The position numbers and the translations under genes are program-made. DNA of 64,000 nucleotides from positions 1 through 64,000 of the IMG/VR virus record IMGVR_UViG_3300027801_000011, one strand, 5' to 3'. Position 1 is the stretch's first letter; each line of letters opens with the position of its first letter. Below are positions 594-53,124 of this stretch, one piece after another. The notes beneath the pieces were generated by a model. That model was not told the origin of the DNA. It made no database searches and saw only the letters and a program-made list of their open reading frames with translations. The DNA is from a virus.

Positions 594-927
594 CTGTAGT
601 ACTTGGAATCCATTAAAGACAGTTGAGATTAAGACGGTTGAAGTTGACAGGCAAATTCCTGTACAGAATCGCCCTCAACCTATTAAGATAAACAGCAACA
701 TGAAGTGGTGGGTTGTTACTGAGGAAAACTTTAAGGAATTTAAAGAACAATTCCAAAAAGAGAATGGCGATCCTTTGGTTGCATATGTGCTAAGTGTTAA
801 AGATTATGAGACGCTAGCGATCAATATGGCTGAGATTAAGAGATATATTGAACAACAGAAATCGATAATTGTGTACTATGAAGACGCAGTTAAACCTGTA
901 GTGAAGGAAAAAGATATTAAGAAATGA
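532..927 (+). CDS. putative outer-membrane spanin lipoprotein (Rz1-like)
   Basis: Lipobox LLLSSC, proline-containing periplasmic part, overlaps the i-spanin in another frame. Confidence 0.7.
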   Translation: MQANVYWKVSSLLLLSLLLSSCSTWNPLKTVEIKTVEVDRQIPVQNRPQPIKINSNMKWWVVTEENFKEFKEQFQKENGDPLVAYVLSVKDYETLAINMAEIKRYIEQQKSIIVYYEDAVKPVVKEKDIKK

Positions 928-972
928 CGTTCATCCCAATGGGACGGAAGTAGCTATGCTGCGAAGGAACGC
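928..972 (+). ncRNA. glutamine-I riboswitch (glnA RNA motif)
   Basis: CGTTC-A-TCCC(AAT)GGGA-CGGAAGTA-GC(TATGCT)GC-GAAG-GAACG-C: P1 CGTTC/GAACG, P2, and E-loop AGTA/GAA match the glnA motif consensus as I recall it. Confidence 0.85.
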
Positions 973-1001
973 ACTTAACCTGTAAAGAGGGGAAGTGTGA
1001 T

Positions 1002-20076: not shown

Positions 20077-20132
20077 TCAATGACTTACAAGGTACGATTT
20101 TGCTTGACATTATCCTTTTAGTGTGTTACTAT
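20077..20132 (+). promoter_or_regulatory. early promoter with conserved upstream boxes
   Basis: TCAATGACTTA-N4-GTACGATTTTGC-TTGACA-17-TACTAT. Confidence 0.75.
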
Positions 20133-20150
20133 AAGGTATAATCAAGAGAC

Positions 20151-20204
20151 AGAGACTTCTGGAGATGGAATCACCATCTAGGGCATGTGCCACCGCTAGT
20201 CTCT
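20151..20204 (+). ncRNA. unrecognised structured leader RNA, copy 1
   Basis: AGAGACT/AGTCTCT, AGATGG/CCATCT and GGC/GCC stems; second copy at 46708. Confidence 0.65.
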
Positions 20205-20218
20205 TCAAAGGAGATTTA

Positions 20219-20518
20219 ATGAATAAAGTGATTGATGTAGGTTCTACCTTAATAGAAATCAATACTAAGAAATTAGGTGAAGCCTGTGGTTGGATTGGAA
20301 TGATTCTAATCCACGGGGCGACTGCTCCTACTTCTATTTCTGTTCTAATGGGGTGGAGTAGTGCTCTTCCCCCTTTGAACTTTATATTGTTGATTTGGGC
20401 AGGATTGTTCTTGTTCTTAATTAGGGCAATTGTTGCTAAAGATGTGTTATATATGGTGTCCAATGCAATTGGATTTGCCCTAAATAGCTTGCTTCTTAGT
20501 TTAATTGCTTTTTCTTAG
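20219..20518 (+). CDS. 3-TM protein, SemiSWEET/PQ-loop-like
   Basis: GWIGMILI...P...LYMVSNAIGF; AAGGAG SD. Confidence 0.5.
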   Translation: MNKVIDVGSTLIEINTKKLGEACGWIGMILIHGATAPTSISVLMGWSSALPPLNFILLIWAGLFLFLIRAIVAKDVLYMVSNAIGFALNSLLLSLIAFS

Positions 20519-46666: not shown

Positions 46667-46695
46667 TTGACATCTTGGTGATGTTATGGTAGTAT
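46667..46695 (+). promoter_or_regulatory. sigma70-type early promoter
   Basis: TTGACA-17-TAGTAT. Confidence 0.7.
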
Positions 46696-46707
46696 AATAA
46701 CACTGAA

Positions 46708-46774
46708 GGAAGACTTCTGGAGATGGGTTTAGTGACTTTTCCCATCTAGGGCATAACGCCACTGTTAGTCTTTC
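46708..46774 (+). ncRNA. unrecognised structured leader RNA, copy 2
   Basis: GGAAGACT/AGTCTTTC, AGATGGG/CCCATCT and GGC/GCC stems. Confidence 0.65.
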
Positions 46775-46971
46775 ATTCGGATTTCCTCTGGTAATCAAAC
46801 TACCCCCCAGAGGAATAGCAAGAGGGACGCAGCTCGAAACGCCAAAGATAAAATCAAGGCGACAACAAGGCGGGGTATTGGTGATGTACGTACTACCATT
46901 AAAGATGTACCGCTGTTGGGGGTCAGCGTTAACAAAACCCCCACTTATTGGTTTCTAATGGAAGAAAGTAT

Positions 46972-47283
46972 ATGTCTAAAATTGACGCTCTAATGAAAAC
47001 TTACGAAGGTGTGGAAACTGTTTCTGTTATCCATGCCGCTATGGATGATGCAATCAGTCCAACTGTGGTTGCAATGGTCGAAGTCTCTAGTGGACTTAGC
47101 GATACTGCTAAGTTAGAGAAGGCCTTCATGTTGACGAACTCTATTAATGATGCATGGTGGAATAACAAAGATGTTACCCCTATGTTCAGCGAGAAAGGTT
47201 GTCGATCTACTATGGTTGGAGACATGGTGCTAATCGGTACTGTGAAATATAAATGTGACTCAATGGGATGGAGTAAAGTATAA
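46972..47283 (+). CDS. early hypothetical protein
   Basis: LTNSI...RSTMVGD. Confidence 0.6.
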   Translation: MSKIDALMKTYEGVETVSVIHAAMDDAISPTVVAMVEVSSGLSDTAKLEKAFMLTNSINDAWWNNKDVTPMFSEKGCRSTMVGDMVLIGTVKYKCDSMGWSKV

Positions 47284-52375: not shown

Positions 52376-52594
52376 ATGACTGAATTAACACTAGTGGCAG
52401 ACGGCTGGATGGAGAAGGGTGTACGAGTGGTATGCTGGAGATATGGTTCATATGACTATGAGATAGAGATATACAATATGAAGCTAACATCTAAGGAGAC
52501 TAAGGTCACTATACCGTATAAGGCCTCCTATGAGGCGACTATCGCCCATGTTAAGGAGATGTGTGCAGCTACTAACGCCTGTTGTGTGTATTAA
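52376..52594 (+). CDS. early hypothetical protein
   Basis: Follows promoter 52311. Confidence 0.55.
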   Translation: MTELTLVADGWMEKGVRVVCWRYGSYDYEIEIYNMKLTSKETKVTIPYKASYEATIAHVKEMCAATNACCVY

Positions 52595-52644
52595 AAGAAA
52601 GTACTTGACATATACCTTATAGTGTGTTATAGTACTAATAGAAT

Positions 52645-52726
52645 TGAGAGAGTGATTCGTTAAGGTTGGATGGGTCATGTTAAAGTTCCACAATGGTGGT
52701 GTGACAAGTGAGTCGATCCTCTCTCA
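52645..52726 (+). ncRNA. candidate small structured RNA
   Basis: Starts just after promoter 52605; TGAGAGAG/CTCTCTCA closing stem with inner stems; no ORF. Confidence 0.45.
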
Positions 52727-53124
52727 GCTCTCTCTAAGAAGGGTGGCCCCTTTAAACTGGCCGCCAATGTCTAATCTATAAATGTAATAAGTATCCAATG
52801 AAACATCTAACAGCAACTGAAAGGATCAACCCCCCAATGGCCAATTCCCCTATATCTTTAAGCTCCTCAGAGGCAATCACAATATCAGTATTAGAGAAGG
52901 AACTTGGTTCACCCTCTATAGATTCCCGATACAGAGAATGTATCATTAGGAGAATTGAGTACATCAAGGAGAACTTACAGGACAACATGGCCACCCCCTA
53001 AAACTGGAAGGGGGCCATATCCCTTAACTGGGAATAAAAATTCAGCTGGCCCAAAAAAAGACTTGACAAGGCTGTTTATATGTGTTACTATAACACTTAA
53101 CAATTGAGAAGGAACTACTACACT

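Follow-up and report, generated by a model that had tools for sequence, protein, structure and literature searches.

A new family of structured leader RNAs on some early transcripts of uncultured marine T4-like phages

Introduction

Regulation through structured leader RNAs is known, and several described systems come close to the one reported here. Purine riboswitch aptamers are three-way junctions that require a conserved kiss between loops L2 and L3. The T4 gene 32 mRNA leader carries a pseudoknot at its 5' end that is a protein docking site, through which the gene regulates itself. The putL and putR elements of HK022 are RNAs of about 65–70 nt, each made of two stem-loops, which occur two per genome and act in cis after an early promoter. 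Among marine T4-like phages, the Melnitz-type group has been described to carry both a permuted tmRNA and a glutamine riboswitch, and its use of riboswitches has been reported (PMC9004378). In a 2023 survey of IMG/VR, Fremin et al. listed 10,006 predicted candidates for structured RNAs, some of them associated with gp32 (PMC10690425). A further element of T4-like phages, PeSL, is a terminator stem-loop upstream of an early promoter, with a proposed role in DNA recombination (PMC4122927).

Here we describe an RNA motif from an uncultured marine phage that resembles each of these systems in part. Like the purine aptamers, it is a three-way junction of 60–70 nt in a 5' UTR, with conserved junction strands and a P1 stem that closes near the expression signals; unlike them, it has loops that vary freely, a P2 that can shrink to 3 bp and a P3 that may hold a second motif, and it lacks an Rfam match, alternative pairing of the Shine-Dalgarno (SD) sequence as a general feature, and a coherent set of downstream genes. 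It shares with the glutamine riboswitch (RF01739) a small three-stem build and a place in a marine T4-like phage ahead of a small ORF without known function, and it sets a precedent for placing small phage genes under the control of an RNA (PMC9004378). The two differ in consensus and fold, no model match links them, and the glutamine family also occurs in bacteria. Like the gene 32 leader, the motif is a structured 5' element upstream of an accessible ribosome-binding region, at which docking is putative in our case; unlike that pseudoknot, which serves one gene, it is a three-way junction that precedes at least 20 unrelated small genes. It is similar in size to the put elements, lies just past an early promoter and occurs twice in this genome. 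As with PeSL, it is a short conserved module that is tied to early promoters and hyperplastic regions, is repeated around small ORFs and is probably shuffled (PMC4122927).

Two copies of a three-way junction follow early promoters

The window, a stretch of 64,000 nt, covers positions 1 to 64,000 of IMG/VR record IMGVR_UViG_3300027801_000011, a 115,309-bp uncultured T4-like myovirus with a T4-type RNase H, gp6 baseplate wedge, class II RNR and tryptophan halogenase. The nearest relative of its gp6 is that of OM43 phage Melnitz (48% identity), followed by those of the Pelagibacter myophages Mosig and HTVC008M (44%). The window also contains an alpha-type permuted tmRNA and a glutamine riboswitch (glnA RNA, RF01739; window 926–975, 50.2 bits with Rfam) that precedes a small ORF without known function.

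A covariance model of the motif found exactly two copies in the whole phage record (Table 1). The first-pass annotation had placed two copies at these positions from the letters alone, and direct reading of the sequence agreed. The junction strands UCUGG and AG proved identical in both, the P2 and P3 loops differ in length and sequence, and the differences between the two closing stems are compensatory, all as had been claimed. An exact gapped pattern of the shared letters matched twice, at the two known copies, with 0.00 matches expected, none of 100 dinucleotide-preserving shuffles having matched. RNAfold gave copy 1 a minimum free energy (MFE) of -22.5 kcal/mol (z -2.8), reproduced the junction and added three pairs, U13.G59, G14-C58 and G15-C57; copy 2 folds at -22.1 kcal/mol (z -2.5).

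Table 1. Coordinates of the two motif copies and of associated features, numbered in the window unless a contig label is given.
Feature	Position	Strand	Remarks
Copy 1 promoter, early sigma-70-type	20104-20132	+	-35 TTGACA 20104-20109, 17-nt spacer, -10 TACTAT 20127-20132
Copy 1, second -10-like TATAAT	20137-20142	+	
Motif copy 1, full covariance-model match	20148-20207	+	81.4 bits, E 1e-24
Copy 1 P1	20151-20157/20198-20204	+	sequence reading
Copy 1 J1/2 UCUGG	20158-20162	+	
Copy 1 P2	20163-20168/20174-20179	+	loop AAUCA
Copy 1 J2/3 AG	20180-20181	+	
Copy 1 P3	20182-20184/20189-20191	+	loop AUGU
Copy 1 J3/1 ACCGCU	20192-20197	+	
SD AAGGAG of the gene after copy 1	20208-20213	+	begins 3 nt past P1
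99-aa ORF	20219-20518	+	three predicted TM helices; first gene of the copy 1 transcript
Copy 2 early promoter	46667-46695	+	-35 TTGACA 46667-46672, -10 TAGTAT 46690-46695
Motif copy 2	46706-46776	+	65.4 bits, E 3e-19 (covariance model)
Copy 2 P1	46708-46715/46767-46774	+	
Copy 2 UCUGG	46716-46720	+	
Copy 2 P2	46721-46727/46741-46747	+	13-nt loop
Copy 2 AG	46748-46749	+	
Copy 2 P3	46750-46752/46758-46760	+	
Copy 2 ACUGUU	46761-46766	+	
Leader after copy 2	46777-46971	+	195 nt, no ORF of at least 40 aa
Hairpin in copy 2 leader	46783-46816	+	
Block GGGACGCAGCUCGAAAC in copy 2 leader	46824-46840	+	
G5/C5 hairpin in copy 2 leader	46918-46942	+	
103-aa ORF	46972-47283	+	first gene past copy 2, no family match
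~65-aa early-protein family, members	L004:6888-7079 and 25 others	- (L004)	
~65-aa early-protein family, window member	52377-52592		

Both copies start shortly 3' of a -10 box, as annotated, and each belongs to a TTGACA-N17-TAnnAT promoter. At copy 1 the stem was said to end 3 nt ahead of an AAGGAG, and it does: its last pair lies at 20204, the SD begins at 20208, and 14 nt separate the stem from the ATG (20219). The 99-aa product of this gene had been called SemiSWEET-like. Three TM helices are indeed predicted, but the SemiSWEET identity is a lead only: the protein has no Pfam match at E ≤ 0.01 and no PHROG match, and among its Atlas neighbours at a score of 0.90 only 18–23% of members carry MtN3_slv (PF03083) or PQ-loop (PF04193). 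The genes that follow it include a Hydrolase_2 cell-wall hydrolase, MazG and an Asp/Arg hydroxylase-like protein. Copy 2 does not adjoin a gene: the next ATG, at 46972, follows only after 195 nt in which no plausible ORF is seen.

The window has about 14 early promoters, of which these two bear the motif, and the remaining leaders run 25–35 nt straight to an SD. At many of the promoters (e.g. those at 20104, 45186, 45819, 52311 and 52605) a second TATAAT or TATAAA follows 3–4 nt past the -10 and is itself followed by GAGAG. As this arrangement is generic, the 5' strand of P1 appears to be built on the phage's generic early-leader start.

Covariation of the stems and invariance of the junction

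Four pattern scans of IMG/VR and one of marine metagenomes, filtered by the covariance model, yielded more than 100 distinct relatives. We aligned 39 distinct IMG/VR sequences (A2) and 74 distinct marine-metagenome sequences (A3), two largely independent sets. In both alignments, standard pairs fill 98.1% of cells and 12 of the 16 pairs have changed on both sides, with covariation in each of P1, P2 and P3. No shuffle (0 of 500) paired as well as the observed alignment, and sliding the 3' partners lowered pairing to 33–46%. Positions 2–4 of P2 each show four to six pair types, and P3 alternates between GGC/GCC, GUC/GAC, GUC/GGC and others. Several positions also admit G.U or U.G pairs, which indicates that the transcript of the + strand is what folds. 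The lack of covariation that would have counted against the original proposal was therefore not seen, and the motif is a genuine structured RNA with strong covariation.

The invariant part of this RNA is its junction, about 13 nt that are kept over more than 100 sequences: (U/A)CUGG, an A-U pair that opens P2, AG, a G-C pair that opens P3, and ACUG. RNAfold predicts the pairs U13.G59, G14.U58 and G15-C57, and the G-C middle pair of copy 1 is the sole variation seen there. In the architecture modelled in this way, a 2x2 internal loop (UC/YU) likely lies beneath a tight junction. In a second junction subtype ACUGG occurs together with ACUGAA or ACUGAC, so that the letters of the internal loop change jointly. 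A self-pairing of J2/3 with J3/1 as CUAG/CUAG was rejected because several variants break it.

The arms are far more permissive. P1 is usually GAGAGAGACU/AGUCUCUCUC and typically 9–10 bp long, and other lineages have replaced it outright, with GUGAGGUU/AACCUCAC, UCCUCU/AGAGGA, GGGAU/AUCCC or CCAGAGACU/AGUCUCUGG. P2 goes down to 3 bp, capped by a GNRA loop (GAAA, GCAA or GAGA) or by UUCG. P3 is sometimes long, and in L013 and L042/L207 it contains a complete second copy of the motif. As P1 can be replaced, P2 shrunk and P3 made to hold a second motif, only the junction is constrained, and it is there, not in the arms, that selection acts. The first-pass annotation had taken conserved junctions with variable loops as typical of a binding RNA; that pattern holds across the family and points to recognition at the junction.

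The nested double motifs (L013:580-690, - strand; L042:4429-4523, - strand; and L207) arose at least twice independently, and their inner copies have a covarying P1 of their own, GGAUU/AAUCC or GUCU/AGAC. Such repeated origins would suit cooperative or dimeric binding, which is putative.

A family outside Rfam that appears restricted to phages

The first reading could place the motif in no known family, and Rfam 15 (4227 models) likewise excludes one: neither copy was matched at the gathering score, and at E ≤ 10 the only hits, HYMAI and sR4 at a chance-level 11 bits, lay in the flanks and not on the motif. Two divergent representatives (L279 and L117) had no Rfam match, and 15 homologous loci returned one tRNA and nothing else. 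Models of the hammerhead, twister, twister-sister, pistol, hatchet, HDV and hairpin ribozymes found no match at E ≤ 10. The motif is thus a new family within a known kind, the structured cis-acting leader RNA, with its newness measured against Rfam 15.

Beyond Rfam, no similar stretch turned up when 50,697 GenBank phage records were searched by blastn with the motif, and the covariance model, run to E ≤ 10, had no hit in Melnitz-3, Mosig or HTVC008M. The Melnitz paper, whose scan covered known riboswitches only, makes no mention of the motif (PMC9004378). A clade-specific pattern run on one genome from each of 185,579 prokaryote species gave 14 matches, all at 21 bits or less; true copies score 55–87 bits. 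A pattern that ignores P1 gave 4 matches in 401 cyanobacterial genomes vs 3 in a reversed control, and none of them folds. Within the bacterial genomes so searched the distribution appears phage-restricted: every copy recovered came from a phage or marine metagenome contig. It seems to be confined to abundant uncultured marine T4-like phages akin to those of SAR11 and OM43.

Promoters, genes and leaders around the motif

To describe the setting of the family we used 107 distinct instances of the motif with its context. An early promoter of the form TTGAC[AT]-N16-18-TAnnnT lies at most 70 nt upstream in 71 of the 104 contexts with enough upstream sequence. The structure begins 10–23 nt downstream of the -10, most often with 13 nt between the end of the -10 and the first pair of P1, so that it should start only a few nucleotides into the transcript, given a start site placed from the promoter consensus. 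One subgroup departs from this, with no promoter closer to the motif than about 40 nt. Partial genomes carry one to three copies. The new family is located in cis, where it forms the 5' end of some of the early transcripts of uncultured marine T4-like phages.

An SD and ATG directly follow the motif in 71 contexts (~70%), with the SD 2–8 nt past P1 and, three outliers aside, 12–21 nt from the end of P1 to the ATG. In 30 of 101 contexts (~30%) no ORF is adjacent, and these copies head long, apparently non-coding leaders with other conserved modules. The proteins encoded downstream are small and form at least 20 unrelated clusters; none has a Pfam match, and the PHROG matches are solely to families of unknown function. 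Tabulating the genes in this way brought out no riboswitch theme, and the SemiSWEET-like gene is limited to copy 1 of this phage.

The largest downstream cluster (29 of 71) is a family of ~65-aa proteins with the pattern LWGxGNYKYEIE...EVFExSYEEAxxKFE. Its homologue in the window has a plain leader, without the motif. An AlphaFold model of the protein (pLDDT 91) shows a five- or six-stranded sheet and one helix, and its structural similarities are weak (Foldseek, best hit a PARP WGR domain at E 0.23; VIA, best Z 5.3, WGR Z 4.6); no PDB or Pfam sequence matches were found. In another T4-type lineage the order is nrdA, nrdB, motif, a 62-aa membrane-anchored protein and a 5'-deoxyribonucleotidase.

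Several arrangements stand apart from the common one. Tandem copies of the motif bracket one small gene in L004 and L117. Minimal ORFs come right after the motif's SD in L065, L157 and L191, that of L065 being AUG-ACU-UAA; at the position of this AUG, L040 and L087 have ACG or AAG. In L006 (1631-1680) an 11-codon hydrophobic ORF directly follows the motif's SD. The minimal ORFs may be start-stop or leader-peptide devices, or may be due to chance.

The leader appears to fold constitutively and to leave the SD free

The first-pass annotation had proposed a candidate riboswitch. One feature of riboswitches, a conserved structured core in the 5' UTR, is plainly present, with an invariant junction, three covarying stems and a leader position. 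Copy 1 also has a possible switch: the 3' strand of its P1 can form with the SD an alternative 8-bp hairpin (-5.7 kcal/mol) that is nearly isoenergetic with the junction, and when downstream sequence is included the MFE fold swaps P1 for this hairpin. It occurs at copy 1 only. We folded the 3' strand of P1 with each real leader and with 212 SD-containing control leaders from the same contigs, and pairing averaged -2.6 kcal/mol for the real leaders vs -3.8 for the controls (median rank 0.72). With the first 25 nt of the ORF included the median rank was 0.60, and in 0 of 77 cases did the real SD/start region rank at or below 0.05; over the two tests the controls numbered 212–235. The controls thus rule out SD sequestration by the 3' strand of P1 as a general feature. 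Pairing of the 5' strand of P1 with the ORF start was also discarded; it involves only 10 genes that begin MTTL(Y/A), and their codons explain it best.

Folded without constraint, 62 of 95 contexts have the junction as their MFE structure, and the median ddG is 0. No terminator was found between the motif and the AUG, and the 12–21 nt at hand leave no room for one. By these predictions the RNA looks constitutively folded with its SD left free, and does not look like a two-state switch. The riboswitch proposal is thus partly supported and, on balance, weakened: the structured leader RNA and its position at early promoters stand, and the expression platform and coherent gene set are missing.

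Possible modes of action

The reading we favour, tentatively and at somewhat less than even confidence, is that of a constitutively folded leader whose junction docks a putative trans-acting factor, which would set how well some of the early transcripts are translated or how stable they are. The RNA folds by itself into a compact three-way junction, with a long P1 that is interrupted by the UC/YU 2x2 internal loop and extended beyond it by U.G, G.U and G-C pairs, and with P2 and P3 hairpins free in length and loops. The invariant nucleotides would form the docking surface for the partner. The likeliest candidate is a protein or ribonucleoprotein that these infections share, for instance an RNase, the 30S platform, or a factor that represses or activates translation. 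With P1 ending at about -13 to -16 from the AUG and abutting an exposed SD, occupancy of the junction could set 30S access, 5'-end-dependent decay or both; in the case of a non-coding RNA with the element at its head, that RNA would be the target of the same partner. The element does not act through conformational switching between P1 and an anti-SD. An operator or enhancer that binds a factor is in our view the likeliest role, on account of the constitutive fold, the missing platform, the incoherent, regulon-like genes, the seemingly phage-restricted distribution and the recurring double copies, and the motif's presence at 2 of about 14 early promoters fits a regulon-like subset. A role in translation alone would leave out the ~30% of copies that lie away from an SD and AUG. 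Several T4-like lineages with unrelated P1 stems have kept the same junction, and a universal partner (a small molecule, the ribosome or RNAP) or catalysis fits this as well as a protein does.

Several rivals share the evidence with that reading. A phage-restricted new RNA class, either a riboswitch that reads host state at infection or a small self-cleaving ribozyme, would accommodate the core of about 13 nt and the want of a conventional platform, and we consider it possible, if doubtful. More narrowly, a small-molecule or ion riboswitch would use the junction as an aptamer pocket, with ligand altering translation of the adjacent early gene. The invariant junction amid freely varying stems and loops, the 5'-UTR site with the SD just past P1, nested copies reminiscent of tandem aptamers, the hairpin that could sequester the SD of copy 1 and the one lineage with the motif in a nucleotide-metabolism block all favour it, as do the genuine glutamine riboswitch of this phage and the riboswitches of Melnitz-type phages (PMC9004378). 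Against these stand the lack of a conserved expression platform or terminator, a P1 that at its usual length forms unaided, downstream families with no metabolic theme (and, in 30% of contexts, no adjacent gene) and the failure to find the motif in the 185,579 species and 401 cyanobacterial genomes searched, and we think this riboswitch unlikely. A new self-cleaving ribozyme class, or an endoribonuclease processing signal, would trim the leader and leave a defined 5' end. The small multi-helix junction with its short invariant core and dispensable stems is typical small-ribozyme anatomy, and the apparently phage-only distribution, the incoherent genes and the placement before coding and non-coding RNAs alike also agree with it; since the core is kept across lineages with unrelated P1 stems, no lineage-specific partner would be needed. 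RNase III sites in T7 early RNA are a precedent for a processing signal. The seven known small-ribozyme models nevertheless found no similarity at E ≤ 10, the core presumably differs from that of the hammerhead, and we hold self-cleavage or processing to be improbable.

The remaining rivals ask less of the junction. A passive 5'-terminal stabiliser or insulator, which would guard against 5'-end-dependent decay and keep the SD unpaired without a specific partner, would suit a structure of -22 kcal/mol that begins a few nucleotides from the inferred start site and leaves the SD free, and would serve mRNAs and non-coding RNAs equally well. A simple hairpin would suffice for that purpose, however, and 13 junction nucleotides that stay invariant over more than 100 sequences while all stems covary, like the coordinated changes of the ACUGG/ACUGAA subtype, go unexplained, which leaves this reading a small chance. 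An antiterminator analogous to HK022 put, whose nascent junction would bind RNAP and carry it through downstream hairpins, could account for a position immediately past strong early promoters, for one to three copies per genome and for the presence before both coding sequences and long structured non-coding leaders with terminator-like hairpins, such as that at 46918-46942. Yet the motif is a three-way junction where put has two stem-loops, without sequence similarity to it; tight SD/AUG spacing, found in 70% of cases, is not a feature of put and is left unaccounted for, and one subgroup lies well away from any promoter. We hold antitermination to be very improbable. Least credible, to the point of near dismissal, is a repeat that acts at the level of DNA, a promoter cassette spread and homogenised by recombination in the manner of PeSL and devoid of RNA function. 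The motif does travel with an early promoter, flanks small ORFs in hyperplastic regions and is found in tandem around one small gene in two contigs, but compensatory changes in three stems together with frequent G.U pairs argue for selection on the folded + strand transcript. The PeSL stem-loop lies upstream of its promoter, whereas the motif is downstream of its own, 10–23 nt past the -10, where it is transcribed and under selection as RNA (PMC4122927).

For the favoured docking reading, a protein partner would make a new operator-repressor pair in the most abundant phage-host systems of the ocean; with a metabolite as partner, the family would be a class of riboswitches so far found in phages alone, and if the RNA self-cleaves, a new ribozyme class. 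In each case we have a structured leader without an Rfam relative, with more than 100 natural variants and textbook covariation. Since only some of the early transcripts bear it, these phages would seem to have a level of early-gene control that is so far undescribed for them. The small core and freely replaceable stems make synthesis and probing easy.

Other conserved elements of the early leaders

Two modules of the leader after copy 2 (46777-46971) recur after the motif in L101 (3198-3530), L213 and L110: a hairpin of the type CC.C.GAGAAUUAUAUUUCUGG.. and a block GGGACGCAGC(U/C)C. Their recurrence in these sequences suggests that the three-way junction is the first domain of a longer non-coding RNA with several domains.

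After the early promoter at 52605, window 52645-52726 (+) holds another conserved structured RNA, which is unrelated to the first. It reads GAGAG..(A/U)UUAAGGUUGG(U/A)UGG(C/G)CCAC.GUGAAAGUUCC..UAUGGUGUGGGG..CUCUC, and its outer stem covaries. We counted about 20 distinct instances, often a few hundred nucleotides past the three-way-junction motif (L031, L036, L039, L040, L087, L101, L157, L159, L160, L162, L177, L190, L193, L196, L210, L213 and L220 among them), and the Rfam searches run here did not report it.

A further module recurs between small early cassettes, at window 52737-52795 and in L004, L006, L031, L036, L040 and L065. It consists, in order, of a G/C run, UUUAAACUG or UUAAAACUG, about 15 nt, and (A/C)UAUAAAUG(C/U)AAUAAG, and its second half resembles a T4-type late promoter (TATAAAT).
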